Shown piece after piece: positions 34,663 to 59,270 of a stretch of 64,000 bases of DNA (positions are counted from its first letter, which is position 1; every line of letters begins with the position of its first letter). Position numbers and translations under genes: made by a program. The stretch is from the NCBI RefSeq assembly GCF_030013595.1, contig NZ_CP122768.1; one strand, written 5' to 3'. This DNA is from Escherichia coli. Its GTDB lineage: Bacteria; Pseudomonadota; Gammaproteobacteria; Enterobacterales; Enterobacteriaceae. The notes under the pieces are model-generated. The model did not search any database, had not been told where the DNA came from, and saw only the letters and a program-made list of their open reading frames with translations.

Positions 34663-35177
34663 GTTCTCCCCGTATTCTGGCCTGTGTGATGCCAGTGTAA
34701 ATTCATGTCAAAAAGTGTCAGCGAGAAAATTTACACCTGAAAAAGTCTGTCATGAAACAGTTTTATGACAAGACATCAAAAAAATGTCAAAAACGTGATC
34801 TTTCTTCAGCTTTTCAGAATATTGAGTACCAGGAAGTCAATATCAATTCTGGGACACATATGCATTTACCATTAAAACCGGGCACAACAAGCTGTTCAGT
34901 CTCAATCCATACCCCGTGTTTTATCAATATCAGAATAAGAATATCTGCGGATAAATAAAAAAGGAATGTCGAGGGAGCTTACCGCAGAGGGCTCTCCACC
35001 TCACAAACCATTTACAAAAATGATACCGGCATATCTTTGGTCCCTGTCACAACCAGACATTGACAATCCAATATAACCCCAAATATATTTCGGGTAAGAA
35101 GTCTGGGATTTATACAGATATACTGTCTGTTATTACTATTTAATTATATAATTGTATTGCATACATAAGAGGCACTA

Positions 35178-35567
35178 ATGAAACGTTATATAAAATGGTT
35201 TGCCATCACAATTTTTATCAGTATGTTGAGTGCCTGTGCCCGTACGGCCCCAGTGCAACAGATAAGCACCACTGTCAGTGTGGGTCATACTCAGGAGCAG
35301 GTTAAAAATGCCATTTTGAAAGCAGGTGCGCAGCGCAAGTGGATTATGACGCAAGTGTCCCCTGGAGTTATTAAAGCTCGCTATCAAACACGAAATCACG
35401 TTGCAGAGGTTCGTATTACATATACAGCTACCTACTATAACATCAAATATGACAGTAGCCTGAATCTGCAGGCTTCTGATGGAAAAATTCATAAAAACTA
35501 TAACCGCTGGGTGCGTAACCTAGATAAAGATATACAGGTTAACTTATCTACAGGAGCAACGTTATAG
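35178..35567 (+). CDS. apeA: small lipoprotein, first gene of the APE-type cluster
   Basis: 129 aa with lipobox ISMLSAC; sits 64 bp upstream of the methyltransferase gene; symbol assigned by gene order in the published ape nomenclature. Confidence 0.6.
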   Translation: MKRYIKWFAITIFISMLSACARTAPVQQISTTVSVGHTQEQVKNAILKAGAQRKWIMTQVSPGVIKARYQTRNHVAEVRITYTATYYNIKYDSSLNLQASDGKIHKNYNRWVRNLDKDIQVNLSTGATL

Positions 35568-35631
35568 TGATGCTGATATCGGGCTGGAATGGCCCGATAG
35601 TATTTAACTTTCTCTATAAGAATGGTTATAT

Positions 35632-36690
35632 ATGTACGAACAGGACACGCTCAGCGCACTGGATGCCATCACCGAAGCACAGCGGATTGCCTTTGCTCCT
35701 ATGCTTTTCCAGGCAGCTTTGTGCCTGCGCAATGCAGGAATATTAGATTATTTGGATCAACAGGGTAAACAGGGAGCTCCCCTTAATGCGATTACTGAGC
35801 ACACAGTCCTGAATGAATATGCCGTGGGTGTGTTACTGGATATGGGCTTAAGCGGGCGAATTATTACCTGTAAAGAGGGAATTTATTACCTGGCGAAAAT
35901 CGGTCATTACCTCCTGCATGACACTATGACTCGCGTGAATATGGATTTCACCCAGGATGTCTGTTACCAGGGGCTCTTCTTCCTTGCCGATTCACTCAAT
36001 GAAGGAAAACCTTCCGGGTTAAAAGTATTTGGCGACTGGCCGACGATATATCCGGCACTTTCGCAATTACCAGACGCCGCACGTGATAGCTGGTTTGCGT
36101 TTGATCATTACTATTCAGATGGCGCATTTAACGCCGCACTGCCTTATGTATTCGCCAACAACCCCACAACCTTGTACGATGTGGGTGGCAATACGGGTAA
36201 GTGGGCTTTGCGCTGCTGCAAATTCAATGAAAACATCGCCGTTACGTTATTAGATCTGCCACAACAAATCGTACTGGCGAAAGAAAATATCGCGAATGCA
36301 GGTTTTTCTGATCGCATAGATTTCCATGCGGTGGATATGCTAAGCGATGCCCCATTACCAGGCGAGGCTGATATCTGGTGGATGAGCCAATTTTTAGACT
36401 GTTTTTCACCCGAACAAATAATTAGCATACTCAGCAAAATTGCCAGCGTAATGAAGCCTGGCGCAAAACTTTGCATCATGGAGTTGTTCTGGGATGCACA
36501 GCGGTTTGAAGCGACATCGTTTAGCCTGAATGCATCCTCACTTTATTTTACCTGCATGGCAAACGGTAACAGCCGTTTCTATAGTGCAGAGAAATTTTAC
36601 GACTATCTGAATAAAGCAGGATTCCAGGTAGCAGAGTGTCACGATAATTTAGGCGTTGGGCATACACTTTTGATATGCCAAAAGAAATAA
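35632..36690 (+). CDS. apeB: class I SAM-dependent O-methyltransferase
   Basis: 352 aa; motif I LYDVGGNTGKWAL and overall plant-type O-MT-like length with N-terminal dimerisation region. Confidence 0.75.
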   Translation: MYEQDTLSALDAITEAQRIAFAPMLFQAALCLRNAGILDYLDQQGKQGAPLNAITEHTVLNEYAVGVLLDMGLSGRIITCKEGIYYLAKIGHYLLHDTMTRVNMDFTQDVCYQGLFFLADSLNEGKPSGLKVFGDWPTIYPALSQLPDAARDSWFAFDHYYSDGAFNAALPYVFANNPTTLYDVGGNTGKWALRCCKFNENIAVTLLDLPQQIVLAKENIANAGFSDRIDFHAVDMLSDAPLPGEADIWWMSQFLDCFSPEQIISILSKIASVMKPGAKLCIMELFWDAQRFEATSFSLNASSLYFTCMANGNSRFYSAEKFYDYLNKAGFQVAECHDNLGVGHTLLICQKK

Positions 36691-36730
36691 TCGTCACTTA
36701 ATAATTTTGGTTTACCGCGGGCGCGCGTTG

Positions 36731-37453
36731 ATGAAATTTGCATTAAATATTACCAACTGGCAGGCACTGGCGCCTGGACTTAGCGATGTGCAGCAATGGC
36801 AAGCATGGTCGCGCCAGCCGTGGGCGATTGACCCTGCCGCGCCGTTGGCAAAATTAAGTGAACTGCCAATGATGACCGCTCGTCGTCTCAGTTCAGGCAG
36901 CAAACTGGCTGTTGAATGCGGTCTGACAATGCTACGCCGCCATCAGCCAGACGCTGTTTTGTATACCAGTCGTCATGGCGAACTGGAGCGCAATTACCGC
37001 ATTGTTCATGCACTGGCAACCGAACAGGCGCTTTCTCCGACGGACTTCGCGCTTTCCGTACACAACTCTTCCGTGGGTAACCTGACCATTGTGGCCAAAC
37101 AGCCGATCGTTTCGTCATCGCTTTCGGCTGGTCGCGACAGTTTCCAGCAAGGTTTGTGTGAAGTGCTTAGCCTGCTACAAGCGGGATACCAGCGCGTGTT
37201 GATGGTCGATTTTGATGGCTTTCTACCTGAGTTTTATCACCCGCAACTGCCCGCAGAAATGCCTACCTGGCCGTACGCCGTCGCGCTGGTGATTGAAGCT
37301 GGCGATGACTGGCAATGTGAAACGCAGCCAGCCATTGCGGTAAATGAAACAACACTGCCGCAAAGCATCTTGTTTTTACAGCACTATTTACAAAATGCAG
37401 ATGCTTTTTCACTGCCTGGCGAGCGCGTGCAATGGCGCTGGAGCCGCAGATGA
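36731..37453 (+). CDS. apeC: ketosynthase-like protein lacking active-site Cys (chain-length-factor candidate)
   Basis: 241 aa KS N-terminal-like fold without the ACSSS Cys motif or HGT/GHT histidines; start set at MKFALNITNW. Confidence 0.65.
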   Translation: MKFALNITNWQALAPGLSDVQQWQAWSRQPWAIDPAAPLAKLSELPMMTARRLSSGSKLAVECGLTMLRRHQPDAVLYTSRHGELERNYRIVHALATEQALSPTDFALSVHNSSVGNLTIVAKQPIVSSSLSAGRDSFQQGLCEVLSLLQAGYQRVLMVDFDGFLPEFYHPQLPAEMPTWPYAVALVIEAGDDWQCETQPAIAVNETTLPQSILFLQHYLQNADAFSLPGERVQWRWSRR

Positions 37454-38271
37454 GTAAGCTGATGTCGCGCCTGGGATGGGCATGGCGACTGGTCATGACC
37501 GGGTTATGTTTTGTCCTGTTTGGTCTCGGCGGCCTGCTGCTTTCAGTCGTGTGGTTTAACATATTGTTAGTTTTGGTGTGGGATACTTCCCGCCGCCGTC
37601 GTTTGGCACGTCGCAGCATTGCCGCCAGTTTTCGCCTGTTTTTAACTGTCGCGAAAGGGCTTGGCGTGCTGGATTATCGTATTGATGGCGCTGAAATTTT
37701 ACGTCAGGAACGCGGTTGCCTCGTCGTAGCCAATCATCCCACGCTGATCGATTACGTGCTGCTGGCATCAGTCATGCCAGAAACTGACTGCCTGGTGAAA
37801 AGCGCGCTGTTAAAAAATCCTTTTCTTGGCGGCGTCGTGCGAGCGGCAGATTATTTAATCAACAGCGAAGCAGAAACCCTGTTACCCCGCTGCCAACAGC
37901 GACTGGCACAGGGTGACACTATCCTGATTTTCCCCGAAGGCACACGAACGAAGCCCGGTGAAAAAATGACGTTACAGCGCGGTGCAGCGAATATTGCCGT
38001 GCGCTGCACCAGCGATTTACGCATCGTGACGATCGGCTGTAGCGAGCATCTGCTGGATAAACAAAGTAAGTGGTATGACGTCCCGCCTGCCAGGCCGTTT
38101 TTTACGGTTGAAGTCCGTGGGCGGGTAGAAATCAATAAATTTTACGATGCAACTTCACAAGAGCCGACGCTGGCTGCAAGACAGTTAAACCGGCATCTTT
38201 TGCTTCAATTACAGCAAGGTTGTTTACCTCTATCAGGAATAAATAATGCAAGCGCTTTATCTGGAAATTAA
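37450..38271 (+). CDS. apeD: PlsC-family lysophospholipid acyltransferase
   Basis: HX4D motif (ANHPTLIDY) and FPEGTR motif; N-terminal TM segment; ATGA overlap with apeC stop. Confidence 0.75.
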   Translation: MSKLMSRLGWAWRLVMTGLCFVLFGLGGLLLSVVWFNILLVLVWDTSRRRRLARRSIAASFRLFLTVAKGLGVLDYRIDGAEILRQERGCLVVANHPTLIDYVLLASVMPETDCLVKSALLKNPFLGGVVRAADYLINSEAETLLPRCQQRLAQGDTILIFPEGTRTKPGEKMTLQRGAANIAVRCTSDLRIVTIGCSEHLLDKQSKWYDVPPARPFFTVEVRGRVEINKFYDATSQEPTLAARQLNRHLLLQLQQGCLPLSGINNASALSGN

Positions 38272-38503
38272 AAACCTCATCATCAGCACCCTCAATCTGG
38301 ACGACTTGACTCCTGATGATATTGATATCAATGCGCCACTGTTTGGCGACGGTTTAGGGCTGGACTCTATCGATGCACTGGAACTGGGACTGGCAGTAAA
38401 AAATGAGTACGGCATCGTGCTCTCTGCGGAAAGCGAAGAAATGCGTCAGCACTTTTTCTCCGTCGCCACTCTGGCCTCTTTCATTGCTGCGCAACGTGCC
38501 TGA
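38246..38503 (+). CDS. apeE: acyl carrier protein
   Basis: 85 aa with phosphopantetheine attachment motif LGLDSIDALEL. Confidence 0.8.
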   Translation: MQALYLEIKNLIISTLNLDDLTPDDIDINAPLFGDGLGLDSIDALELGLAVKNEYGIVLSAESEEMRQHFFSVATLASFIAAQRA

Positions 38504-38514
38504 GGAAAACCATC

Positions 38515-38766
38515 ATGACAGACCAACAAACCATTTATCAGGAAGTCTCAGCCCTGCTGGTTAAGCTGTTTGAAATCGATCCGCAGGACATCAAACCTGA
38601 AGCGCGACTGTACGAAGATCTGGAACTGGACAGCATCGACGCCGTTGACATGATTGTGCACCTGCAAAAGAAAACCGGTAAGAAAATCAAGCCGGAAGAG
38701 TTTAAAGCAGTGCGTACAGTCCAGGATGTTGTCGAGGCTGTAGAACGCCTGCTACAAGAAGGCTAA
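38515..38766 (+). CDS. apeF: acyl carrier protein (second copy)
   Basis: 83 aa with LELDSIDAVDM motif. Confidence 0.8.
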   Translation: MTDQQTIYQEVSALLVKLFEIDPQDIKPEARLYEDLELDSIDAVDMIVHLQKKTGKKIKPEEFKAVRTVQDVVEAVERLLQEG

Positions 38767-38770
38767 TTTG

Positions 38771-39352
38771 ATGTCGGGCATTCGCTCGCTACCGATGATT
38801 AAGTTGCTGACCGGATTATTGCTGCTCGTCTGGCCTTTTTTAATCTGGCTAGGTTTGGTGCATAACAGCCTGCACTGGCTGTTGCCGCTGATGGCGCTGT
38901 TGCTTTTATTGCGCCTGCGCCAGCCCCGTCGCCAGACGGGGCCGCTCCAGGTCGTCACAAAAATCGTTGCTGTTGTGGGCATTGTATTGTGTGTCTCCAG
39001 TTTTCTGTTGAAAACGTACCAGTTACTGCTGTTTTACCCGGTAGTGGTTAACGCAGTCATGCTGGCGGTTTTTGGCGGTTCGCTGCGGTCGACAATGCCG
39101 ATAGTTGAGCGGCTGGCACGTTTGCAGGAGCCAGACCTCCCGGAAAAGGCCGTGCGATATACCCGCCGCGTAACGCAGGTCTGGTGCCTGTTTTTTATTT
39201 TCAATGGCAGTATTGCGTTATTTACCACCTTGTATGGCAACATGCCCTTGTGGACAGCCTGGAACGGTATCATTGCTTACCTTCTGATAGGTTTCCTGAC
39301 TGCAGGGGAATGGCTGATACGTCGTAAGATGATCAAACGGAAAACACCATGA
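38771..39352 (+). CDS. apeG: integral membrane protein (COG4648-like)
   Basis: Four or more hydrophobic segments; ATG at 38771 preferred over the TTG at 38768 used by the ORF track. Confidence 0.6.
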   Translation: MSGIRSLPMIKLLTGLLLLVWPFLIWLGLVHNSLHWLLPLMALLLLLRLRQPRRQTGPLQVVTKIVAVVGIVLCVSSFLLKTYQLLLFYPVVVNAVMLAVFGGSLRSTMPIVERLARLQEPDLPEKAVRYTRRVTQVWCLFFIFNGSIALFTTLYGNMPLWTAWNGIIAYLLIGFLTAGEWLIRRKMIKRKTP

Positions 39353-40707
39353 ATCAGACTCTCTCACTTTCACAGTGGTTGACAGCCTCTCGCCCTGTAA
39401 CAACTCCTGTTGCCTGGCTTGGGGAATATACCTGGACACTGGGGCATCTGCGGCATGATGTAGCGCTTTTGATCGACCATTTACGCGACCAGCCAGGCAA
39501 TCGCTGGGCACTTTGTTTTGAAAACAGCTATCTTTTTATTGTAGCGTTGTTGGCCACGCTACACTCAGGTAAAATCCCGGTAATCCCGGGCCATAATCGC
39601 GCCGCTTTGTTAAATGTACAACGCTCTTTGTTTGATTGCGTCCTGAGTGATAAAAGGCTGGGCTGGAACGGTCCACAGTTTGTTGTAAGCACATCTCACC
39701 AGATGACGACCAGCACGATAGCCTTTGATGATATTGCTTCTGACGCGTTTATTGAACTTTTCACATCGGGTTCAACCGGACAACCAAAACAAATTGCAAA
39801 ACCTGTTATCAGCCTTGATCAAGAAGCAAACATGCTGGCAACTCACTTTGCAGACCGACTACTGGGCTGTCGTTTTGTAGCATCCGTGATGCCTCAGCAC
39901 CTGTATGGGCTAACTTTCCGTATTTTTTTACCCATGGCACTTGGCCTGCCATTGCATGCCGCAATGCTCTGGTATTCTGAGCAACTTGCCGCATTAAGCC
40001 ATACCTACCGCTATGCCTTTGTCAGCAGCCCGGCGTTCCTTAAGCGACTCGACCTTCATCTGACGCCTCCCCCAGTGGAAATGATTCTCTCTGCCGGCGG
40101 TATGCTACCATGGCAGGATGTAGAGAAAACTTCCACCTGGCTGAATATATGGCCCGATGAAATCTATGGTAGTACCGAAACAGGTATTCTCGCATGGCGT
40201 TACCGTCAACAGGATAATATCCCCTGGTTTACTTTTTCTGATGTTCATCTTTCACAGGAAAGTGAGGGGGTTCGTGTCTTTTCGCCACTAATCCCTGCTG
40301 AAGGATTGGTGCTTGACGATATGTTGCAATTCAATGAAAACGGTCAGTTCCACCTGATCGGACGACGTGGTCGAGTGGTAAAAATAGAGGAGAAGCGGAT
40401 ATCACTGGTTGAAATCGAACAACGACTTCTGGCACTTGACGGTATTATGGATGTCGCTGCAATACCATTAATACGCAATGGCCGCCAGGCTATCGGTGTC
40501 GTGGTTGTACCAAATAAAGAGGCCCGTCAAATATGGCAATGCTCCGGAGGGAAAACTCTGGAGTTGTCCTGGCGCAAAGCACTATTACCATGGCTTGAAC
40601 CTGTTGCAGTACCTCGTTACTGGCGCATTATTGATGAAATACCAGTAAACAGTATGAACAAGCGTGTCTATGCGCAATTACAGGAGTTATTTCATGATAC
40701 GCCATGA
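39349..40707 (+). CDS. apeH: adenylate-forming acyl/aryl-ACP (or CoA) ligase
   Basis: 452 aa with AMP-binding core motifs TSGSTGQPK and YGSTETG; ATGA overlap with apeG. Confidence 0.8.
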   Translation: MNQTLSLSQWLTASRPVTTPVAWLGEYTWTLGHLRHDVALLIDHLRDQPGNRWALCFENSYLFIVALLATLHSGKIPVIPGHNRAALLNVQRSLFDCVLSDKRLGWNGPQFVVSTSHQMTTSTIAFDDIASDAFIELFTSGSTGQPKQIAKPVISLDQEANMLATHFADRLLGCRFVASVMPQHLYGLTFRIFLPMALGLPLHAAMLWYSEQLAALSHTYRYAFVSSPAFLKRLDLHLTPPPVEMILSAGGMLPWQDVEKTSTWLNIWPDEIYGSTETGILAWRYRQQDNIPWFTFSDVHLSQESEGVRVFSPLIPAEGLVLDDMLQFNENGQFHLIGRRGRVVKIEEKRISLVEIEQRLLALDGIMDVAAIPLIRNGRQAIGVVVVPNKEARQIWQCSGGKTLELSWRKALLPWLEPVAVPRYWRIIDEIPVNSMNKRVYAQLQELFHDTP

Positions 40708-41047
40708 AATTGAGCGCCATCTGGTTCAACCGCAGGAGATGGAAATCGTTCTATACCTTGACCCGATGCTCTACTGGTTTAATGGTCATTTTGCCGTACA
40801 GCCTCTGTTACCAGGCGTGGCCCAGTTGGACTGGGTAATGCATTATGCTACCACGCTGCTTGCTCCGGGCTGGCGTTTTCGTAGTATCCAGAATGTTAAA
40901 TTTCTGGCGCCACTTATACCTGAGACGACTGTTACCCTGCAATTAACATGGCAGGAAACAAGTCAGGTACTCACTTTCTGCTATCAGCGTCACGACGGTG
41001 ACGCCCGCCACACCGCCAGTAGCGGGAAGATCCGTCTATGTCGGTAA
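40694..41047 (+). CDS. apeI: hotdog-fold 3-hydroxyacyl-ACP dehydratase
   Basis: About 117 aa FabA/FabZ-like size; start set at MIRHEIER overlapping apeH end. Confidence 0.6.
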   Translation: MIRHEIERHLVQPQEMEIVLYLDPMLYWFNGHFAVQPLLPGVAQLDWVMHYATTLLAPGWRFRSIQNVKFLAPLIPETTVTLQLTWQETSQVLTFCYQRHDGDARHTASSGKIRLCR

Positions 41048-42714
41048 ACTTTTCTCCCTGCGTGTTGATCCCCTGCTACAACCACGGCGCGATGATGCCG
41101 GGCGTGCTGGCGCGTCTTAAGCCATTTAATCTGCCCTGTATTGTGGTGGATGACGGCAGCGATGCCGCCACGCAACAGCAACTGGATAATCTGGTTAGCG
41201 AACAGCCTGGCGTGACCTTAATTCGCCTGGCAGAAAACGCAGGTAAAGGCGCAGCGGTGATGCGTGGCTTGCAGGCAGCGGCAGACGCAGGGTTCAGCCA
41301 TGCGGTGCAGGTGGATGCTGACGGTCAACATGCGATTGAAGATATCCCCAAACTGCTGGCACTCGCTGAACAACACCCTGTGGCGCTGATCTCCGGTCAG
41401 CCAATTTACGATGACTCCATTCCCCGCTCACGGCTGTACGGGCGCTGGGTCACCCACGTCTGGGTATGGATCGAAACGCTCTCCCTGCAACTGAAAGACA
41501 GCATGTGCGGTTTTCGCGTTTATCCGGTTGCGCCGACGCTGCAACTGGCAAAACGCGCCACCATCGGCAAGCGGATGGATTTCGACACCGAAGTGATGGT
41601 GCGCCTCTACTGGCAGGGAAATACCAGCTATTTCGTGCCGACCCGCGTCACCTATCCACTGGACGGGCTTTCGCATTTTGATGCCCTGAAAGATAACGTC
41701 CGCATCTCGCTCATGCACACGCGTCTGTTTTTCGGCATGTTGCCGCGTATTCCTTCACTGCTGATGTGCCACTCTTCCAGCCACTGGGCGCGGCAGAGTG
41801 AAGTTAAAGGGTTATGGGGAATGCGCCTGATGCTGCTGGTCTGGCGTCTGCTGGGAAGAACGGCGTTTACCGCGCTGCTTTACCCGGTGGTTGGCGTCTA
41901 CTGGCTCACCGCTGCTCGTGCGCGTAAAGCGTCGCAAGACTGGCTCGCCCGTGTGCGCCAACAACAACCACAGGCAGCAAAAATCAACAGCTATCAGCAC
42001 TTTCTACGTTTCGGCAACGCCATGCTCGACAAAATCGCCAGCTGGCGCGGCGAGCTGCAACTCGGGCGTGATGTGCTGTTTGCGCCAGGCGCAGAAGCGG
42101 CGCTTGACGTCCGCGATCCGCGCGGCAAATTGCTGCTGGCCTCACATCTTGGCGATGTGGAAGTGTGCCGGGCGCTGGCAAAAATTGAGGGCTACAAAAC
42201 CATTAACGCGCTGGTGTTTAGCGAAAACGCCCAACGCTTTAAACAGATAATGCAGGAGATGGCTCCCCAGGCAGGCATTAACCTGATGCCGGTAACAGAT
42301 ATCGGCCCGGAAACCGCCATCCTGCTGAAAGAGAAGCTGGATAACGGCGAATGGGTGGCGATTGTCGGTGACCGCATCGCCGTCACCCCGCAACGCGGCG
42401 GCGACTGGCGCGTCTGCTGGAGTCCGTTTATGGGCCAGCCTGCGCCCTTCCCACAGGGGCCGTTTATTCTCGCCTCTATTTTGCGCTGCCCGGTGAATCT
42501 GATTTTCGCCCTACGCCAGCACGGCAAGCTGCATATTCACTGCGAAACCTTTGCCGACCCGCTGCTGTTGCCGCGTGGCGAACGCCAACAGGCGCTGCAA
42601 AACGCTATCGACCACTACGCCGCGCGTCTGGAACATTACGCGCTCCAGTCGCCCCTCGACTGGTTTAATTTTTTCGATTTCTGGCAACTGCCGGAAATTC
42701 AGGACAAGGAGTAA
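41038..42714 (+). CDS. apeJ: bifunctional GT2 glycosyltransferase / LpxL-like lipid A-type acyltransferase fusion
   Basis: N-terminal family-2 GT features (CVLIPCYNHG, VVDDGSD, VDADGQH) followed by a C-terminal half resembling HtrB/MsbB late acyltransferases. Confidence 0.7.
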   Translation: MSVNFSPCVLIPCYNHGAMMPGVLARLKPFNLPCIVVDDGSDAATQQQLDNLVSEQPGVTLIRLAENAGKGAAVMRGLQAAADAGFSHAVQVDADGQHAIEDIPKLLALAEQHPVALISGQPIYDDSIPRSRLYGRWVTHVWVWIETLSLQLKDSMCGFRVYPVAPTLQLAKRATIGKRMDFDTEVMVRLYWQGNTSYFVPTRVTYPLDGLSHFDALKDNVRISLMHTRLFFGMLPRIPSLLMCHSSSHWARQSEVKGLWGMRLMLLVWRLLGRTAFTALLYPVVGVYWLTAARARKASQDWLARVRQQQPQAAKINSYQHFLRFGNAMLDKIASWRGELQLGRDVLFAPGAEAALDVRDPRGKLLLASHLGDVEVCRALAKIEGYKTINALVFSENAQRFKQIMQEMAPQAGINLMPVTDIGPETAILLKEKLDNGEWVAIVGDRIAVTPQRGGDWRVCWSPFMGQPAPFPQGPFILASILRCPVNLIFALRQHGKLHIHCETFADPLLLPRGERQQALQNAIDHYAARLEHYALQSPLDWFNFFDFWQLPEIQDKE

Positions 42715-42717
42715 AGG

Positions 42718-43140
42718 GTGCTTAACGATCCCCGATTTACCGCTGAAGTCGAGCTGACCATTCCCTTTCACGACGTCGATATGATGGGCGTGGCCTGGCA
42801 CGGTAACTATTTTCGCTACTTTGAAGTGGCCCGCGAGGCGCTGCTCAACCAGTTCAATTACGGCTATCGGCAGATGAAAGAGTCCGGTTATTTGTGGCCA
42901 GTGGTCGATGCGCGGGTGAAATATCGCCACGCCCTCACCTTTGAGCAACGCATCCGCGTGCGTGCGCATATCGAAGAGTTCGAAAACCGTCTGCGGATTG
43001 GCTATCAGATTTTCGATGCCGAAACGGGCAAACGCGCCACCACCGGATACACCATTCAGGTCGCAGTCGACGAGCAAAGCCGCGAACTGTGCTTTGTCAG
43101 CCCCGATATTCTGTTTGAACGCATGGGAGTCAAACCATGA
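42718..43140 (+). CDS. apeK: 4HBT/YbgC-type hotdog thioesterase
   Basis: 140 aa, GTG start; conserved N-terminal HDVD...GVAWHGNYFRYFE region typical of 4-hydroxybenzoyl-CoA thioesterase family. Confidence 0.75.
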   Translation: MLNDPRFTAEVELTIPFHDVDMMGVAWHGNYFRYFEVAREALLNQFNYGYRQMKESGYLWPVVDARVKYRHALTFEQRIRVRAHIEEFENRLRIGYQIFDAETGKRATTGYTIQVAVDEQSRELCFVSPDILFERMGVKP

Positions 43141-43742
43141 AATTTTTACCGCTGCTGGCGCTGCTGATTAGCCCGTTTGTGAGCGCCCTGACCCGGGACG
43201 ATCTTCAGCAACGCTTTACCGAACAACCGGTGATCCGCGCCCATTTCGATCAAACCCGGACGATTAAAGATCTGCCGCAGCCGCTGCGATCTCAGGGTCA
43301 GATGTTGATCGCCCGCGACCAGGGGTTATTGTGGGATCAAACCTCACCGTTCCCCATGCAACTATTACTGGACGATAAACGCATGGTGCAGGTGATCAAC
43401 GGTCAGCCGCCGCAAATCATCACGGCAGAAAACAACCCACAGATGTTCCAGTTTAACCACCTGCTGCGCGCGCTGTTCCAGGCCGATCGCAAAGTGCTGG
43501 AACAAAACTTCCGCGTCGAATTTGCCGACAAAGGCGAAGGCCGCTGGACGCTGCGCCTGACGCCGACCACCACGCCGCTGGACAAAATTTTCAACACCAT
43601 CGATCTCGCCGGGCAAACCTATCTGGAGAGCATTCAGCTTAATGATAAACAGGGCGATCGCACCGATATCGCTCTTACCCAACATCAACTGACACCAGCG
43701 CAACTGACCGATGACGAACGCCAACGCTTTGCCACCCAGTAA
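43137..43742 (+). CDS. apeL: LolA-like outer-membrane lipoprotein carrier protein
   Basis: 201 aa with signal peptide MKFLPLLALLISPFVSA; size and composition of LolA/LolB fold. Confidence 0.65.
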   Translation: MKFLPLLALLISPFVSALTRDDLQQRFTEQPVIRAHFDQTRTIKDLPQPLRSQGQMLIARDQGLLWDQTSPFPMQLLLDDKRMVQVINGQPPQIITAENNPQMFQFNHLLRALFQADRKVLEQNFRVEFADKGEGRWTLRLTPTTTPLDKIFNTIDLAGQTYLESIQLNDKQGDRTDIALTQHQLTPAQLTDDERQRFATQ

Positions 43743-46029
43743 ACGCCCCGCGCTGTTATGGGGGCTAGTCTGCCTGGTCATGGCGGCGGCGTTGCTGATC
43801 CTGCTGCCACAATCACGACTGAACAGTAGCGTGCTGGCTATGTTACCCAAACAGGCGATGGGCGATATTCCTCCGGCGCTGAATGACGGCTTTATGCAGC
43901 GTCTGGACCGCCAACTGGTGTGGCTGGTCAGCCCCGGTAAAGAGGCTAATCCCAGGGTGGCTCAGGAGTGGCTGACGCTGCTGCAAAAATCCGCTGCGCT
44001 CGGCGACATTAAAGGGCCAATGGATGCCGCCAGCCAGCAGGCGTGGGGAGCGTTTTTCTGGCAGCACCGCAACGGCCTGATTGACCCCGACACCCGCGCC
44101 CGCCTGCAAAATGGCGGCGAAGCGCAGGCGAAGTGGATCCTCTCCCAGCTTTATTCTGCGTTCTCCGGGGTAAGCGGCAAGGAGCTGCAAAACGATCCGC
44201 TGATGTTAATGCGCGGCTCGCAGCTGGCGATGGCGAAAAATGGCCAGCGTTTACGACTAATGGACGGCTGGCTGGTGACGCAGGATCCCCAGGGCAATTA
44301 CTGGTATCTGCTGCACGGCGAACTGGCGGGATCGTCGTTTGATATGCAGCAAACCCACCAGCTCATCACGACCCTGAATACGCTGGAAAAGGCTCTGAAA
44401 ACGCGTTACCCGCAGGCGCAGTTGCTCTCACGCGGCACGGTGTTTTACAGCGATTACGCCAGCCAACAGGCGAAGCAGGATATCTCCACCCTGGGCGTGG
44501 CAACGCTGCTGGGGGTGATATTGCTGATTGTGGCGGTGTTCCGCTCTTTGCGCCCGTTGCTGCTTTGCGTGATTTCCATCGGCATCGGCGCGCTGGCGGG
44601 AACGGCCGCCACATTGTTGATTTTCGGTGAATTACACCTGATGACGCTGGTGATGAGCATGAGCGTTATCGGCATTTCCGCTGACTACACGCTCTATTAT
44701 CTCACCGAGCGGATGGTGCACGGCAACGACGTTTCGCCGTGGCAAAGCCTGGCGAAAGTACGCAATGCCCTGCTGCTGGCGCTGCTCACAACCGTGGCGG
44801 CATATCTGATTATGATGCTCGCCCCCTTCCCCGGCATTCGCCAGATGGCGATTTTTGCCGCCGTCGGGTTGAGCGCCTCTTGTCTGACCGTCCTGTTCTG
44901 GCATCCGTGGCTGTGCCGTGGTCTGCCGGTGCGCCCGGTTCCGGCGATGGCGCTGATGCTACGCTGGCTGGCAGCGTGGCGGCGCAATAAAAAACTGTCG
45001 CGGGGTCTGCCCGTTGCGCTGGCGCTGTTTTCGCTGGCGGGGATGTCAATGCTGCGCGTCGATGACGATATCTCGCAGTTACAGGCGCTGCCGCAGCACA
45101 TTCTGGCGCAGGAGAAAGCCATTACCGCCCTGACCGGACAAAGCGTCGATCAAAAATGGTTTGTAGTTTACGGCGACTCCCCACAGCAAACATTGCGGCG
45201 ACTGGAGAAATATACCGCCTCACTTGAGTATGCGAAAAAAGAGGGGCTTATCAGCAACTACCGCACTATTCCGCTGAACTCCCTGGCGCGGCAGGAGGAA
45301 GACTTAGACCTGCTGAAAACGGCTGCCCCGACGGTAACAAAAGCACTGCAAAATGCAGGGCTGACGGCGGTGAAACCAGATCTCAACGCCATGCCGGTGA
45401 AGGTCGATGAATGGCTGGCAAGCCCCGCCAGTGAAGGCTGGCGTCTGCTGTGGCTGACGCTGGAAAACGGCGAAAGCGGTGTACTGGTGCCGGTTGAAGG
45501 GGTTAAAAGTAGCGCATTGTTGCAGGAAATCGCCAGCTATTACCCTTGCGGCATTGCCTGGGTTGATCGCAAAAGCTCCTTTGATGAATTGTTCGCACTT
45601 TACCGCTACGTCTTAACCGGCTTGTTGCTGGTGGCGCTGGCAGTGATTGCCTGCGGCGCAGTGGCCCGTCTCGGCTGGCGCAAAGGGCTTATCAGCCTGG
45701 TGCCTTCGGTGCTTTCGCTGGGCTGTGGTCTGGCGGTGCTGGCGATGAGCGGGCAGGCGGTGAATCTCTTTTCGCTGCTGGCGCTGGTGCTGGTGCTTGG
45801 CATCGGTATCAACTACACGCTGTTTTTCAGTAATCCGCGCGGTACACCGTTAACTTCGCTACTGGCGATCGCGCTGGCAATGCTCACCACCTTGCTGACG
45901 CTGGGAATGCTGGTATTCAGCGCCACCCAGGCCATCAGCAGTTTTGGCATTGTGCTGGTGAGCGGTATTTTCACCGCCTTCCTGCTTTCGCCGCTGGCTA
46001 TGCCCGATAAAAAGAGAACAAAAAAATGA
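43711..46029 (+). CDS. apeM: MMPL/RND-superfamily membrane exporter
   Basis: 772 aa with two hydrophobic TM bundles separated by soluble domains; start uncertain (ATG at 43711 or TTG at 43729). Confidence 0.75.
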   Translation: MTNANALPPSKRPALLWGLVCLVMAAALLILLPQSRLNSSVLAMLPKQAMGDIPPALNDGFMQRLDRQLVWLVSPGKEANPRVAQEWLTLLQKSAALGDIKGPMDAASQQAWGAFFWQHRNGLIDPDTRARLQNGGEAQAKWILSQLYSAFSGVSGKELQNDPLMLMRGSQLAMAKNGQRLRLMDGWLVTQDPQGNYWYLLHGELAGSSFDMQQTHQLITTLNTLEKALKTRYPQAQLLSRGTVFYSDYASQQAKQDISTLGVATLLGVILLIVAVFRSLRPLLLCVISIGIGALAGTAATLLIFGELHLMTLVMSMSVIGISADYTLYYLTERMVHGNDVSPWQSLAKVRNALLLALLTTVAAYLIMMLAPFPGIRQMAIFAAVGLSASCLTVLFWHPWLCRGLPVRPVPAMALMLRWLAAWRRNKKLSRGLPVALALFSLAGMSMLRVDDDISQLQALPQHILAQEKAITALTGQSVDQKWFVVYGDSPQQTLRRLEKYTASLEYAKKEGLISNYRTIPLNSLARQEEDLDLLKTAAPTVTKALQNAGLTAVKPDLNAMPVKVDEWLASPASEGWRLLWLTLENGESGVLVPVEGVKSSALLQEIASYYPCGIAWVDRKSSFDELFALYRYVLTGLLLVALAVIACGAVARLGWRKGLISLVPSVLSLGCGLAVLAMSGQAVNLFSLLALVLVLGIGINYTLFFSNPRGTPLTSLLAIALAMLTTLLTLGMLVFSATQAISSFGIVLVSGIFTAFLLSPLAMPDKKRTKK

Positions 46030-46610
46030 TCAAATCCACATTCTGGCGAGCGTTCGCCCTGACCGCTACGCTTATCCTCACCGGCTGTAGCCACTCGCAA
46101 CCAGAACAGGAAGGCCGCCCGCAGGCGTGGCTGCAACCTGGCACGCGCATCACGCTGCCGGCACCAGGGATTTCACCCGCAGTCAATTCGCAGCAACTGT
46201 TGACCGGCAGCTTCAACGGCAAAACCCAGTCGCTGTTAGTGATGCTTAACGCCGACGATCAGAAAATCACCCTTGCCGGGCTGTCGTCGGTCGGCATTCG
46301 CCTGTTTCTGGTGACCTACGATGCGCAAGGGCTACGCGCCGAGCAATCCATCGTCGTCCCACAGTTACCGCCCGCAAGTCAGGTACTGGCTGACGTGATG
46401 CTCAGCCACTGGCCGATTAGCGCCTGGGAGGCGCAACTTCCCGCAGGATGGACACTTCGCGACAACGGTGACAAACGCGAGCTGCGTAACGCCAGCGGCA
46501 AACTGGTCACGGAAATCACCTATCTGAATCGCCAGGGAAAACGCGTGCCAATCAGAATTGAGCAGCATGTCTTTAAATACCACATCACCATTCAATACTT
46601 AGGTGAATGA
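46026..46610 (+). CDS. apeN: DUF3261-type lipoprotein
   Basis: 194 aa, lipobox LTGCSHS; ATGA overlap with apeM. Confidence 0.6.
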   Translation: MIKSTFWRAFALTATLILTGCSHSQPEQEGRPQAWLQPGTRITLPAPGISPAVNSQQLLTGSFNGKTQSLLVMLNADDQKITLAGLSSVGIRLFLVTYDAQGLRAEQSIVVPQLPPASQVLADVMLSHWPISAWEAQLPAGWTLRDNGDKRELRNASGKLVTEITYLNRQGKRVPIRIEQHVFKYHITIQYLGE

Positions 46611-46611
46611 T

Positions 46612-47781
46612 ATGATTTATATTTCCGCCGTCGGCATGATCAACGCCCTGGGAAATAACCTTGACGAAATCGCAGCCAACCTGGCTCGCGGTGTCGCCCC
46701 CGGCATGCGCCCACGCGCAGGCTGGTTGCAGGGGCATCCGCAGGCGGTCCTGGCTGGCGTGGATGGCGAGCTTCCGCTTATCCCGGAAAAATTCGCTGCG
46801 CATCGCTCGCGCAACAATCAGATCCTGCTGGCGGCGCTGGCGCAGCTCCAGCCGCAGGTTGATGACGCTATCGCGAAATATGGCTGCGAGCGCATCGCGA
46901 TTGTGCTTGGCACCAGCACCTCCGGCCTGCATGAAGGCGACACGCACGTTAACCTGCACACCCACGGGCAGCCGAGCACCACGTGGCACTATGCACAACA
47001 AGAACTCGGCGATCCGTCGCGTTTTCTCAGCCACTGGCTGGCGCTCGACGGCCCGGCTTATACCCTTTCAACCGCCTGCTCCTCCAGTGCCAGAGCAATG
47101 ATCAGCGGGCGCAGGCTTATCGAAGCGGGGCTGGTCGATGCCGCCATTGTGGGTGGCGCAGACACCCTGAGCCGAATGCCGATTAACGGTTTTCACAGCC
47201 TCGAATCGCTCTCGCCAACCTTATGTCAGCCGTTTAGTCGTGACCGCGCAGGTATCACCATTGGTGAAGGGGCGGGGCTAATGCTGCTGACCCGGGAACC
47301 GCAGCCCATCGCGTTGCTGGGCGTTGGTGAATCGAGCGACGCTTACCATATTTCAGCCCCGCATCCGCAGGGCGAAGGAGCGATCCGCGCTATTAATCAG
47401 GCGCTGACCGATGCGCAGCTTACGCCGGATGACGTCGGCTATATCAACCTGCACGGCACCGCCACACAGCTCAACGACCAGATTGAATCAATGGTGGTTA
47501 ACGCCCTGTTTGGCGAACGCGTACCGTGCAGCTCCACCAAACATTTGACCGGACACACGCTCGGCGCGGCTGGCATTACCGAGGCGGCAATTAGTATGTT
47601 GATTTTACAGCGTGATTTACCGCTGCCCGCTCAGGACTTCAGCCTGTCGCCGCGCGATCCCACGCTGCCACCGTGTGGCATTATCGAAAAACCGCAGCCG
47701 CTGGCACGTCCGGTGATCCTGTCCAATTCCTTCGCCTTTGGCGGCAATAACGCCAGCATTCTGCTCGGGAGGGTTTCGTGA
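46612..47781 (+). CDS. apeO: beta-ketoacyl-ACP synthase (KS)
   Basis: Active-site motif STACSSSARAM plus LHGTATQ and GHTLGAAG histidines; start set at MIYISAVG (ORF track starts at GTG 46603). Confidence 0.85.
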   Translation: MIYISAVGMINALGNNLDEIAANLARGVAPGMRPRAGWLQGHPQAVLAGVDGELPLIPEKFAAHRSRNNQILLAALAQLQPQVDDAIAKYGCERIAIVLGTSTSGLHEGDTHVNLHTHGQPSTTWHYAQQELGDPSRFLSHWLALDGPAYTLSTACSSSARAMISGRRLIEAGLVDAAIVGGADTLSRMPINGFHSLESLSPTLCQPFSRDRAGITIGEGAGLMLLTREPQPIALLGVGESSDAYHISAPHPQGEGAIRAINQALTDAQLTPDDVGYINLHGTATQLNDQIESMVVNALFGERVPCSSTKHLTGHTLGAAGITEAAISMLILQRDLPLPAQDFSLSPRDPTLPPCGIIEKPQPLARPVILSNSFAFGGNNASILLGRVS

Positions 47782-48242
47782 GCCACTATTTATCCCCCGG
47801 CGCTTATCTGCCCCACGACGCGCCCATGTTACTGCTGGAAGACGTGGTGAGCGTCAGCGATGACAGCGCGGTGTGCCGCGTGACGGTTTCGCCCAGTGGC
47901 GTACTGGCACCGTTTCTCGACCCGGACGGCAATCTCCCTGGCTGGTTTGCCCTTGAACTGATGGCGCAAACCGTCGGCGTCTGGTCTGGCTGGCATCGCC
48001 ACCAGCAGGGCAAAAACAGTATTGAGTTAGGGATGATACTGGGCGCGCGTGAATTGCTTTGCACCACTGGCATTCTGCCCGCAGGCCAGACGCTGACCAT
48101 TACCGTCAAACTGCTGATGCAGGACGATCGCTTCGGCAGCTTTGAGTGCAGCATCAACGACGGCGAGGCGACGGGCCGCATTAACACCTTCCAGCCGACC
48201 GCGGAAGAACTTACCACCCTGTTTCAACAAGGAGCGTCCTGA
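47778..48242 (+). CDS. apeP: hotdog-fold 3-hydroxyacyl-ACP dehydratase
   Basis: 154 aa FabA-like; GTGA overlap with apeO stop. Confidence 0.65.
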   Translation: MSHYLSPGAYLPHDAPMLLLEDVVSVSDDSAVCRVTVSPSGVLAPFLDPDGNLPGWFALELMAQTVGVWSGWHRHQQGKNSIELGMILGARELLCTTGILPAGQTLTITVKLLMQDDRFGSFECSINDGEATGRINTFQPTAEELTTLFQQGAS

Positions 48243-48973
48243 TGAGTCGTTCAGTTCTGGTTACTGGTGCCAGCAAAGGCATTGGTCGCGCCATCGCCTG
48301 CAAGCTTGCGGCAGACGGCTTTAACATTGGCGTTCACTATCACCGTGACGCCACAGGCGCTCAGGAAACGCTGAATGCCATTGTCGCCAACGGGGGTAAC
48401 GGGCGTTTGCTCAGTTTCGACGTCGCAAACCGCGAACAGTGTCGGGAAGTGCTGGAGCATGAGATCGCGCAACACGGTGCCTGGTACGGCGTGGTCAGTA
48501 ACGCCGGGATCGCCCGCGATGCCGCTTTTCCGGCTTTAAGCGATGACGACTGGGATGCGGTGATCCACACCAACCTCGACAGTTTCTACAACGTCATTCA
48601 GCCGTGCATTATGCCAATGATCGGCGCGCGCCAGGGTGGGCGCATCATCACGCTGTCCTCGGTTTCCGGCGTAATGGGCAATCGCGGCCAGGTGAATTAC
48701 AGCGCAGCCAAAGCCGGAATTATCGGCGCAACAAAAGCACTGGCTATCGAACTCGCAAAGCGCAAAATCACCGTCAATTGCATCGCGCCAGGGCTTATTG
48801 ATACCGGGATGATCGAAATGGAAGAAAGCGCTCTGAAAGAGGCAATGTCGATGATCCCCATGAAACGTATGGGCCAGGCGGAAGAAGTTGCCGGGCTTGC
48901 CAGTTATTTAATGTCTGATATTGCGGGTTACGTCACCCGCCAGGTTATTTCCATCAACGGAGGGATGTTATGA
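48242..48973 (+). CDS. apeQ: SDR-family 3-oxoacyl-ACP reductase (FabG-like)
   Basis: Rossmann motif VTGASKGIGRAIA and catalytic YSAAK. Confidence 0.85.
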   Translation: MSRSVLVTGASKGIGRAIACKLAADGFNIGVHYHRDATGAQETLNAIVANGGNGRLLSFDVANREQCREVLEHEIAQHGAWYGVVSNAGIARDAAFPALSDDDWDAVIHTNLDSFYNVIQPCIMPMIGARQGGRIITLSSVSGVMGNRGQVNYSAAKAGIIGATKALAIELAKRKITVNCIAPGLIDTGMIEMEESALKEAMSMIPMKRMGQAEEVAGLASYLMSDIAGYVTRQVISINGGML

Positions 48974-50199
48974 CACGTCGCGTAGTGATTACAGGAATGG
49001 GCGGCGTGACTGCCTTTGGTGAAAACTGGCAGGACGTTTCTGCACGCTTACTGGCGTATGAAAATGCGGTGCGCAAAATGCCGGAGTGGCAGGTCTACGA
49101 TGGGCTGCACACCCTGCTTGGCGCGCCTGTTGATGATTTCACGCTACCGGAGCACTACACCCGCAAGCGTATCCGTGCGATGGGCCGCGTGTCGCAAATG
49201 TCGACCCGTGCCAGCGAGCTGGCGTTAGAGCAGGCAGGGTTGATTGGCGATCCGATATTAACCAGCGGCGAAACGGGCATTGCGTACGGTTCATCGACCG
49301 GCAGTACCGGTCCGGTGAGCGAATTTGCCACCATGCTGACTGAAAAGCACACGAACAACATCACTGGCACCACCTATGTGCAGATGATGCCGCACACCAC
49401 CGCTGTTAATACTGGCCTCTTTTTCGGCCTGCGCGGGCGGGTGATCCCAACCTCCAGCGCCTGTACCTCCGGCAGCCAGGCGATCGGTTATGCGTGGGAA
49501 GCCATTCGCCACGGTTATCAAACGGTGATGGTTGCCGGTGGTGCCGAAGAGTTATGCCCTTCAGAAGCAGCAGTGTTTGATACCCTTTTTGCCACCAGCC
49601 AGCACAATGATGCGCCGAAAACCACACCTTCACCGTTCGATGAAAACCGCGACGGACTGGTGATTGGTGAAGGCGCAGGTACGCTCATTCTCGAAGAACT
49701 GGAGCATGCCAAAGCGCGCGGCGCGACCATTTACGGTGAAATCGTCGGCTTTGCGACGAACTGCGACGCGGCACATATTACCCAGCCGCAGCGCGAAACC
49801 ATGCAGTATTGTATGGAGCAATCGCTGAAAATCGCAGGGTTAAGCGCACAAGATATCGGCTATATTTCAGCGCATGGTACGGCGACCGATCGCGGTGATA
49901 TGGCAGAAAGTCTGGCGACAGCAACCATTTACGGTGATAATGTGCCGCTCTCCTCGCTGAAAAGTTATTTTGGTCATACGCTTGGTGCCTGTGGCGCGCT
50001 CGAAGCCTGGATGAGTCTGCAAATGATGCGCGAAGGTTGGTTTGCGCCTACGCTAAACCTGAATAAACCAGACCCGAATTGTGGCGCGCTGGATTACATC
50101 ATGCATGAAGCCCGCAGGGTTGATTGTGAGTTTTTGCAGAGTAACAACTTTGCCTTTGGCGGCATTAATACATCCATCATTATTAAGCGCTGGCCCTGA
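48970..50199 (+). CDS. apeR: beta-ketoacyl-ACP synthase (FabB/FabF-like)
   Basis: 409 aa with TSSACTSGSQAIG active-site Cys, AHGTATD and GHTLGACG histidines; ATGA overlap with apeQ. Confidence 0.85.
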   Translation: MTRRVVITGMGGVTAFGENWQDVSARLLAYENAVRKMPEWQVYDGLHTLLGAPVDDFTLPEHYTRKRIRAMGRVSQMSTRASELALEQAGLIGDPILTSGETGIAYGSSTGSTGPVSEFATMLTEKHTNNITGTTYVQMMPHTTAVNTGLFFGLRGRVIPTSSACTSGSQAIGYAWEAIRHGYQTVMVAGGAEELCPSEAAVFDTLFATSQHNDAPKTTPSPFDENRDGLVIGEGAGTLILEELEHAKARGATIYGEIVGFATNCDAAHITQPQRETMQYCMEQSLKIAGLSAQDIGYISAHGTATDRGDMAESLATATIYGDNVPLSSLKSYFGHTLGACGALEAWMSLQMMREGWFAPTLNLNKPDPNCGALDYIMHEARRVDCEFLQSNNFAFGGINTSIIIKRWP

Positions 50200-51038
50200 G
50201 TTATACAACCACATGGACATCCCATGTGGTGATTCTTCAAAAAATCTGAATCAATGAATATGAACCTCAAATTCTCTTACGCATACTGAAGAGCATTCCG
50301 TATAACGATTCAGCAGACAAAACTTTATCAGTCCACACGAATCAACGGATGCACAGATGACACGCCCGGTTATCACCGGGCAATGGTTGCCATAACGGGT
50401 AACATAAGGGACTGAACAGTTGTCTTTAGCGCAACGAACTGATCTAACGTACCTGAACGGACAACCTGAAAACAGTCTTTCACCCTGCATTGTCCGCCAG
50501 TGCTTATTACCAACCACGTCTGTTGCAGTAAAGTAATCAGTTGCGAACATTATTTATCAATCGTGACGCTGGCTCGCGCATGGCAGAAAAGGTCCTGACT
50601 GAGCAACAACAGGCATCGTACTGTTGCTGCTCCATGTTGTTTATATGAACGCATCCCGTTTGCAAGGCTTCCGTGTTTTTGACGTTGACGGTAGATTGCT
50701 GCTCTATATCCTTATTGCAGCCGGTGCTGCGGGCCTCAATGAGATTCGCTGACTCTCGCCTTATTCACGCAACGAGCTTTAAGCTCAGAAAAACATCCAA
50801 GTTTGGTGAGTCACAGTCTTACCTGTCGTTGTCATCAATATAGGAATGGATAATCTGGAGAGCGATACTGCAGGCTGATATTGCGGTTTTGCGACAAGTT
50901 TTTAGCATCCGCTTCTACGCCAAATACCTGAAGTAGGAATGGATGCGTTAGCAGCATACATCCGGAACTGCGCGGGGAATAGCCGGAAACGGCTATCCCT
51001 ACCACAATAGCTAACTTTGTAATAGCGCTCTTTTAGGC

Positions 51039-58540: not shown

Positions 58541-58572
58541 ATTGGAACCAATAACTGGGTAATGACTCCAAC

Positions 58573-59076
58573 TTACTGATAGTGTTTTATGTTCAGATAA
58601 TGCCCGATGACCTTGTCATGCAGCTCCACCGATTTTGAGAACGACAGTGACTTCCGTCCCAGCCTTGCCAGATGTTGTCTCAGATTCAGGTTATGCCGCT
58701 CAATGCGCTGAGTATAACGCTTGCTGATAACGTGCAGCTTTCCCTTCAGGCGTGATTCATACAGCGGCCAGCCATCCGTCATCCATACCACGACCTCAAA
58801 GGCCGACAGCAGGCTCAGAAGACGCTCCAGTGTGGCCAGAGTGCGTTCACCGAAGACGTGCGCCACAACCGTCCTCCGCATCCTGTCATACGCGTAAAAC
58901 AGCCAGCGCTGACGTGATTTAGCACCGACGTAGCCCCACTGTTCGTCCATTTCAGCGCAGACAATCACATCACTGCCCGGTTGTATGCGCGAGGTTACCG
59001 ACTGCGGCCTGAGTTTTTTAAGTGGCGGAAAATCGTGTTGAGGCCAACGCCAATAATGCGTGCACTGGCGCGACAT
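58573..59076 (-). CDS. insB: IS1 InsB (expressed as InsAB' by frameshifting)
   Basis: 167-aa ORF overlapping insA in the -1 frame. Confidence 0.85.
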
Positions 59077-59270
59077 CCGACGCCATTCATGGCCATATCA
59101 ATGATTTTCTGGTGCGTACCGGGCTGAGAGGCGGCGTAAGTGAACTGTAGTTGCCATGTTTTACGGCAGTGAGAGCAGAGATAGCGCTGATGTCCGGCGG
59201 TGCTTTTGCCGTTACGCACCACCCCGTCAGTAGCTGAACAGGAGGGACAGCTGATAGAAACAGAAGCCAC
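58995..59270 (-). CDS. insA: IS1 InsA
   Basis: 91-aa [23 protein letters not shown]... Confidence 0.9.

Follow-up and report, generated by a model that had tools for sequence, protein, structure and literature searches.

An intact apeA-apeR aryl-polyene gene cluster on a tRNA-Phe island of Escherichia coli

We analyzed a cluster of 18 genes that occupies about 15 kb of a 64,000-nt stretch of Escherichia coli DNA (contig NZ_CP122768.1, assembly GCF_030013595.1; the whole stretch is called the window below) and that an initial annotation, made from the sequence alone, had assigned to the aryl-polyene (APE) pigment family. Judging by comparison with characterized loci, the cluster is almost certainly an intact copy of APE_Ec, the E. 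coli APE cluster apeA-apeR, carried on a tRNA-Phe (pheU) island. The cluster as such is therefore already known, since it is near-identical to the experimentally characterized type example. Its comparison with other copies in the species nevertheless led to several observations, on intactness, on allele types, and on the architecture of the island, that are presented and discussed below.

Results

The 18 genes all lie on the + strand (Table 1), and our open reading frame (ORF) calls bore out both the limits of the cluster and the tight, translationally coupled spacing that had been described for it. Start codons are those of the RefSeq annotation of strain P13-6, from which the window differs by 1 nt over 15,022 bp. 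The summed gene lengths amount to 15,006 nt against a span of 15,022 nt, neighboring genes overlap at 11 of the 17 junctions (six of these overlaps being of the 4-nt ATGA/GTGA start-stop type), and the widest intergenic gap is 64 nt. From apeA to apeR, the junctions measure +64, +40, -4, -26, +11, +4, -4, -14, -10, +3, -4, -32, -4, +1, -4, -1, and -4 nt, where negative values are overlaps. In none of the 18 genes did we find an internal stop or a change in length relative to the functional cluster of strain CFT073. Upstream of apeA, there is a candidate sigma-70 promoter in a segment (35040-35180) that is identical in CFT073. Just 3' of apeR, a hairpin with a U-containing tail (ΔG -16.1 kcal/mol, z -3.4 by folding) is part of the stretch aligned with CFT073, whose last position is 50269, and is a candidate weak terminator, although a simple terminator scan called nothing after apeR. 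Rfam revealed no RNA element inside or adjoining the cluster. While the promoter and the hairpin are pattern-level leads, an operon structure is supported by the tight coupling, the conserved candidate promoter, and the hairpin.

The type example of this family in the species is the APE_Ec cluster of CFT073, which was reportedly first described by Cimermancic et al. in 2014. Window positions 34478-50269 and CFT073 c1204-c1186 form a single collinear block of 15,792 bp with 98.25% nucleotide identity, in which the same 18 genes follow each other in the same order. Each of the 18 proteins equals its CFT073 counterpart in length, and amino acid identity is 95.4-100%, reaching 100% for ApeE, ApeF, ApeG, ApeI, and ApeK. 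In CFT073, c1186-c1204 have been tabulated as apeR-apeA, the cluster has been heterologously expressed, and each gene has been deleted (Johnston et al. 2021, PMC8253772). The proposal of an APE-type pigment locus with the apeA-apeR gene order is thus upheld. The two copies also share an upstream ShlB-like two-partner-secretion (TPS) remnant and the promoter region, but the CFT073 cluster is found in a serX-side island, whereas the one in the window is in a pheU island. By megablast, the ape region was matched in 1,280 of 5,426 complete E. coli genomes, and at least 80% of it is present in 820 of them (~15%), always on the chromosome. In Xenorhabdus doucetiae, the apeA-R naming and the enzyme set are the same, ApeC/ApeO and ApeI/ApeP of the window match the complexes 6QSP and 6QSR, and one of the APE lipids (APELs) has the E. 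coli 4-hydroxy-3-methylphenyl hexaene chromophore. This cluster, which Grammbitter et al. (2019), as cited in PMC8253772, reconstituted in vitro, differs in belonging to another genus, in also making a 3,5-dimethyl head group, and in being the only one for which the lipid, an N-acetylgalactosamine (GalNAc)-phosphate-glycerol with a C26:5 chain, has been proven (bioRxiv 10.1101/2020.12.19.423268).

The enzymatic content predicted initially, including two ketosynthases (KS) and a KS-like protein devoid of the catalytic Cys, was recovered in family and structure searches. ApeO matches PDB entry 6QSP_A (E 2.6e-173), as well as Acinetobacter 7F28, and the NCBIfam model NF006618 with 556 bits against a 407-bit cut-off; its Cys-His-His triad is complete (ACSS155, HGTAT281, GHTLG314). 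The same is true for ApeR (ACTS164, HGTAT302, GHTLG335), which scores 778 bits against the 470-bit cut-off of NF006587 and matches PDB 4EWG and 7F27 with E values of 1e-158 to 1e-165. In contrast to these two proteins, the 240-aa ApeC has neither ACxS nor HGT motifs in a motif check, and no catalytic Cys or His motifs. Its status as a chain-length factor (CLF) is based on a full-length match to chain B of 6QSP (E 7.5e-92), in addition to 7F28_A from Acinetobacter, and not on similarity to ApeO, with which BLASTP gave no significant match, as expected for such a divergent CLF.

The remaining synthesis enzymes were similarly identified. Both acyl carrier proteins (ACPs) score over cut-off and have the expected serine, ApeE with NF006617 (89.5 bits, DSI40) and ApeF with NF003757 (146.6 bits, DSI39). 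The two hotdog dehydratases ApeI and ApeP match 6QSR_A (E 3.6e-40) and 6QSR_B (E 1.9e-47), respectively, and are named "ApeI family dehydratase" and "ApeP family dehydratase" in RefSeq. The FabG-like reductase is ApeQ, a FabG2 that has the motifs TGASKGIG and YSAAK and matches PDB 4IIU (E 4e-154) and 7CZC; the matches of ApeR and ApeQ include the Acinetobacter ApeR and ApeQ structures. In ApeH, adenylation families are matched in part, and the motifs TSGSTGQPK139 and YGSTE273 are present; loading of 4-hydroxybenzoate was demonstrated, as cited in PMC8253772, with the Xenorhabdus enzyme only. ApeB, initially annotated as an O-methyltransferase dependent on S-adenosylmethionine (SAM), contains the Pfam Methyltransf_2 and dimerization domains and matches the NCBIfam FlxJ family with an E value of 1e-141, yet under the curated cut-off. 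The original assignment agrees with the Pfam family name but not with the chemistry, since the ring of the known product (4-hydroxy-3-methylphenyl) is C-methylated; deleting apeB leads to desmethyl APELs. Family searches found no enoyl reductase, malonyl transferase, or KAS III (FabI, FabD, and FabH functions) among the 18 proteins. Together with the presence of the cluster in ~15% of genomes, this is in keeping with the view that it encodes a separate pathway rather than housekeeping lipid synthesis. No phosphopantetheinyl transferase is encoded in the cluster either, and the window lacks acpT, a gene that 5,425 of the 5,426 genomes carry and that, in O157:H7, is located immediately 3' of apeR.

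The proteins with a proposed role in lipid attachment (ApeD, ApeJ, ApeK) and the dedicated export set (ApeG, ApeL, ApeM, ApeN) were recovered as well, ApeG by its RefSeq name. The assignments of an adenylate-forming ligase (ApeH), a 4HBT thioesterase (ApeK), and a PlsC-like acyltransferase (ApeD) agree with motifs or Pfam/NCBIfam matches, ApeD displaying a TIGR00530 domain (E 3e-15), an HX4D motif in the form HPTLID96, and FPEG161. ApeJ corresponds to the predicted fusion of a GT2 glycosyltransferase with an LpxL-like acyltransferase. PF00535 (GT2; aa 8-132, E 4e-20) is the sole Pfam domain found with the full-length query, and the C-terminal 318 aa, which include HLGDVE370, have no Pfam match of their own, a weak PatA-family match in NCBIfam (E 0.002), and only noise in a phmmer search against the PDB. 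However, the fusion holds because homologues of this C-terminal part with 45-50% identity (E ~1e-82 to 1e-93) contain PF03279, either by itself or joined to a GT2 domain. The LolA-like carrier, the MMPL exporter, and the two lipoproteins were likewise found by family matches and lipoboxes, LSAC in ApeA and LTGC18 in ApeN. ApeL matches TIGR00547 (E 7e-17) and LolA2_flexi (E 5e-15), each under its cut-off, and ApeM matches the HpnN and HAE3 models in part. ApeG has no Pfam match and nothing significant in NCBIfam, and no family was found for ApeA in Pfam or NCBIfam. In the characterized cluster, apeA is dispensable for pigment but required for full APE lipid assembly (PMC8253772).

Comparison with the ape cluster of O157:H7 revealed two allele types. 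The O157:H7 cluster, which lies between yhhT and acpT, has the same 18-gene order, and most of its proteins are 92-100% identical to those in the window. Unlike the island-borne type found in the window, CFT073, and enterotoxigenic E. coli (ETEC) H10407, it is acpT-linked, located immediately 5' of acpT in the core chromosome and not on an island. Work by De Lay and Cronan on AcpT substrates is cited for it in PMC8253772 (ref. 25). Nucleotide identity is 92-99% over most of the cluster but falls to 64-68% in apeA and in a stretch that begins at the 3' end of apeG, includes apeH, and extends into apeI, and amino acid identity is 64% for ApeA, 81% for ApeG, 67% for ApeH, and 72% for ApeI. The divergent stretches lie at 39289-40785 and 35178-35567 of the window, compared with 14749-20613 of the O157:H7 locus. 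Relative to CFT073, the 5' half of the cluster is 99.4-100% identical and the 3' half (apeL-apeR) 93-98%; between 45286 and 46285, identity is 96-99.8% to the O157:H7 allele versus 92.6-96.4% to CFT073. The mosaic 3' half spans 43286-50267. The GC content also shifts along the cluster, from 48.9% in apeA-apeI to 57.6% in apeJ-apeR. On this pattern, apeA looks replaced between the two allele types, as does a cassette comprising apeH with the adjoining parts of apeG and apeI, and the alignments indicate that the copy in the window is a recombinant mosaic of both, with a CFT073-type ApeH cassette.

The surroundings of the cluster match the description of a tRNA-Phe island with fec genes upstream, deoK-type genes downstream, and IS1 on both sides, all of which were located in the window. 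Core genes to the left (yjeM ... groSL ... aspA-dcuA-cutA-dsbD-yjdC) run up to tRNA-Phe, which is followed by a tyrosine integrase, a degenerate IS1, fecIRABCDE, TPS remnants, and ape. Beyond ape, there are a LacI regulator with phosphotransferase system (PTS) components IIA/IIB/IIC, a transposase fragment, a mutarotase, a fucP-like permease, an rbsK-like kinase, and the second IS1, past which the core cadCBA genes resume. The mutarotase, the permease, and the kinase together are presumably a deoxyribose deoX/P/K module. The island site is pheU because it is bounded by the yjdC-side core with tRNA-Phe and by cadCBA. The left IS1, which adjoins a phosphoethanolamine-transferase fragment, corresponds to a P13-6 copy annotated as frameshifted with an internal stop and is probably inactive. 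In the region 58543-59331, the right IS1 stands in place of the promoter side and the initial three codons of the deoK-type kinase gene (57647-58567, - strand) and directly abuts core DNA upstream of cadC, and the distal island of P13-6 and H10407 (the DeoR regulator and beyond) is gone here. Its junction with cadC was found in no genome of the collection of 5,426, and the copy appears to stem from a more recent insertion or deletion event, in which the distal island and the first three deoK codons were lost.

The suggestion that this placement might merit documenting is not sustained, since the same island is already present in the reference strain ETEC H10407 at pheV. There, the integrase, IS1, fecIRABCDE, TPS remnant, ape, LacI/PTS, and deoK-type genes are all found, and the ape cluster is 99.9% identical. 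The differences are the pheV site (speC-yqgA side) instead of pheU, extra IS150 and IS100 copies, and retention of deoQ and the distal island. The H10407 locus at 1563-42058 corresponds to 22562-58557 of the window, which means that both tRNA-Phe genes serve as insertion sites for one island type. The fecE-TPS-apeA junction was detected in 17 complete genomes. A literature search for a published pheU fec-ape island returned nothing relevant, and PMC6174562 does not mention it. Directly upstream of apeA, positions 33354-34662 (- strand) encode a truncated ShlB/FhaC transporter and a haemagglutinin-repeat fragment; TPS remnants accompany ape in CFT073, P13-6, and H10407 as well. Just past apeR, a 99-codon ORF (50251-50550, - strand) is a RefSeq pseudogene fragment with an internal stop and a missing N terminus, of which an 82-100-bp piece is scattered across many E. 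coli genomes as "ECs1377 family protein." Elsewhere in the window, a Guanidine-II (mini-ykkC) riboswitch (8646-8692, - strand; 50.4 bits), upstream of sugE by position, is an ordinary core feature.

Table 1. Positions (in the window) and main attributes of the ape genes and associated features.
Feature	Position	Strand	Attributes
ape cluster	35178-50199	+	18 genes, apeA-apeR; ORF calls
Candidate sigma-70 promoter	35060..35089	+	TTGACA-18-TATATT; consensus scan, 11/12 matches; ~90 nt upstream of apeA
apeA	35178..35567	+	129-aa lipoprotein; lipobox LSAC17; 99.2% aa identical to c1204
apeB	35632..36690	+	SAM-dependent methyltransferase, predicted to C-methylate the aryl ring; 99.4% aa identical to c1203
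apeC	36731..37453	+	CLF, ApeO partner; 99.2% aa identical to c1202
apeD	37450..38271	+	PlsC-type lysophospholipid acyltransferase; 99.6% aa identical to c1201
apeE	38246..38503	+	ACP 1, predicted to carry the 4-hydroxybenzoate starter and the APE chain; 100% identical to c1200
apeF	38515..38766	+	ACP 2; 100% aa identical to c1199
apeG	38771..39352	+	COG4648 membrane protein, proposed export link; RefSeq "COG4648 family protein"; 100% identical to c1198
apeH	39349..40707	+	Adenylate-forming acyl-ACP synthetase, predicted 4-hydroxybenzoate loading onto ApeE; 99.6% identical to c1197
apeI	40694..41047	+	Hotdog dehydratase subunit; 100% aa identical to c1196
apeJ	41038..42714	+	GT2 glycosyltransferase with C-terminal LpxL/LpxP-family acyltransferase fusion; 99.3% identical to c1194
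apeK	42718..43140	+	4HBT-type thioesterase; PF13279 (1e-16), PF03061 (8e-8); 100% identical to c1193
apeL	43137..43742	+	LolA-like periplasmic carrier; 98.0% aa identical to c1192
apeM	43711..46029	+	MMPL/RND-type exporter; RefSeq "MMPL family transporter"; 96.4% identical to c1191
apeN	46026..46610	+	DUF3261 lipoprotein, LolB-like; PF11659 (E 5e-39); 95.4% identical to c1190
apeO	46612..47781	+	Elongating KS, ApeC heterodimer partner; 98.5% aa identical to c1189
apeP	47778..48242	+	Hotdog dehydratase subunit, ApeI partner; 99.4% aa identical to c1188
apeQ	48242..48973	+	3-ketoacyl-ACP reductase FabG2; TIGR01831, 476 bits, over cut-off
apeR	48970..50199	+	FabB/F-like homodimeric KS; 99.5% aa identical to c1186
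Hairpin	50208..50238	+	9-bp stem, 5-nt loop, then UGAUUCUUC; read in sequence; 9 nt past apeR stop
tRNA-Phe	22562-22637		Followed by the island
Left IS1	24268-25029		762 bp, degenerate
Right IS1	58558-59325		768 bp, complete; direct orientation relative to the left copy

Discussion

The identity of the cluster with APE_Ec, its intactness, its catalytic motifs, and its genomic context were observed directly, and we saw no sequence feature that contradicts this assignment. The characterized product is a conjugated hexaene whose head group is 4-hydroxy-3-methylphenyl, and the CFT073 cluster yields a yellow, cell-bound pigment (PMC8253772). Taking the mechanism from near-identical or homologous characterized enzymes, we propose that 4-hydroxybenzoate supplied by UbiC is adenylated by ApeH, which then loads it straight onto holo-ApeE with no CoA intermediate. 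Activation of the ACPs would fall to AcpT, whose gene lies elsewhere on the chromosome. Malonyl condensation would then be performed by the ApeO-ApeC KS-CLF heterodimer, with ApeR aiding in the case of early short chains, and the resulting beta-keto groups would be reduced by ApeQ and dehydrated by the ApeI-ApeP heterodimer. Because no enoyl reductase is encoded, the chain would be left as a polyene and a conjugated hexaene would accumulate, while ring C-methylation by ApeB would give the 4-hydroxy-3-methylphenyl head group. The expectation that pigment would be lost upon deletion of apeR does not hold: ApeO-ApeC alone yields the full polyene in vitro, whereas ApeR makes mostly short polyenes, boosts throughput, and is dispensable for pigment (PMC8358021), and a delta-apeR mutant keeps the primary APE-lipid peak (PMC8253772). 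Another correction to the initial annotation is that the ape cluster is not self-sufficient. It needs AcpT and UbiC-derived 4-hydroxybenzoate from elsewhere, the latter dependence having been reported for the characterized cluster (PMC8253772).

Release of the chromophore and its attachment to a lipid would involve ApeK, ApeD, and ApeJ. In Xenorhabdus, ApeD adds a C26:5 conjugated acyl chain to lysophosphatidylglycerol, and ApeJ adds GalNAc, followed by the APE acyl group. Transport to the outer membrane would be mediated by ApeG, ApeM, ApeL, ApeN, and ApeA, the first four of which have been proposed to move the lipid to this location. For the exact E. coli lipid anchor as for these export steps, we infer from such homologues what the products of the locus may do. 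Once in the outer membrane, the APE lipid would quench reactive oxygen and promote biofilm, in line with the peroxide protection and biofilm promotion reported for the APE pigment (PMC8253772).

A few points can be set against this reading. The structure of the APE lipid anchor was established in Xenorhabdus and not in E. coli (PMC8253772), ApeM (96.4%) and ApeN (95.4%) are the least CFT073-like of the proteins, although they are full length, and the presence of acpT and ubiC in this strain is presumed from their species-wide conservation. Other points concern expression, and would fit with a cluster that, as a cryptic passenger of the island, is not transcribed or yields no product in its native host and brings no benefit under normal conditions. 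In Xenorhabdus, the ape cluster was silent under laboratory conditions until a promoter was inserted, chronic peroxide (H2O2) stress induces the CFT073 wild-type cluster only modestly, the published experiments set the wild type against a constitutive APE+ strain, and there is no regulator gene within the cluster. Yet all 18 ORFs are intact, the cluster is 1 nt off that of strain P13-6 over 15 kb, a near-consensus candidate promoter precedes apeA, and a purifying pattern over hundreds of genomes argues that the cluster is used. We therefore consider a silent passenger unlikely, at perhaps the level of a minority view, and infer that the cluster is expressed in this strain.

Two other interpretations have far less in their favor. 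That the many matches of ape proteins to FabF, FabG, and FabZ models denote a second housekeeping fatty-acid synthase, or that the locus makes another polyketide lipid of the flexirubin or dialkylresorcinol type, is so improbable as to be negligible. Flexirubin and xanthomonadin clusters do share a type II polyketide/fatty-acid synthase-like logic and LolA-like and RND export, and the flexirubin-family models FlxJ, FlxB, and LolA2_flexi match ape proteins. However, these matches are under curated cut-offs, which places the locus outside these subfamilies, and such clusters differ in starter supply, in tailoring (halogenation, dialkylresorcinol ester), and in gene order. In addition, there are no DarA/DarB-type genes and no FabD, FabH, or FabI equivalents, the cluster is accessory, unlike housekeeping type II fatty-acid synthesis, and its product has been determined for a near-identical cluster; the identity with CFT073 and the absence of the three Fab functions led us to reject both versions. 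As for mobility, the two directly oriented IS1 copies bracket a 33.5-kb fec-ape-PTS-deoK segment, and the ape module occupies three distinct sites in E. coli chromosomes, which could suggest a composite transposon. This is very improbable, considering that the copies are just 94.8% identical, that no matching 9-bp target duplications surround either IS1 or the pair (the outer flanks are CAAAAACCA and GACAATGCA, and the inner flanks likewise show no match), and that the islands of P13-6 and H10407 run past deoK without a second IS1. The island has its own tyrosine integrase beside tRNA-Phe, and the pheV and pheU sites fit integrase-mediated insertion. We thus rejected a composite transposon, on the lack of target duplications and on sister islands that have no second IS1.

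The assignment to an intact APE_Ec cluster on an integrative island leaves the two allele types as a mildly useful lead, together with the divergent ApeH cassette that distinguishes island-borne from acpT-linked clusters. It is conceivable, if rather doubtful, that the swapped ApeH might load another aromatic starter or couple differently to the dehydratase, in which case the two alleles would make chemically different APE lipids. If true, the copy in the window would mark recombination between two functional variants. No paper comparing the two ape alleles turned up, although no search was aimed at that question. The value of the present analysis is only in correct annotation, as it documents an intact CFT073-type apeA-apeR cluster on a pheU island alongside ferric-citrate uptake genes. 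Since APE lipids guard Gram-negative pathogens from oxidative stress and favor biofilm formation, this is a fitness trait that deserves to be correctly annotated.

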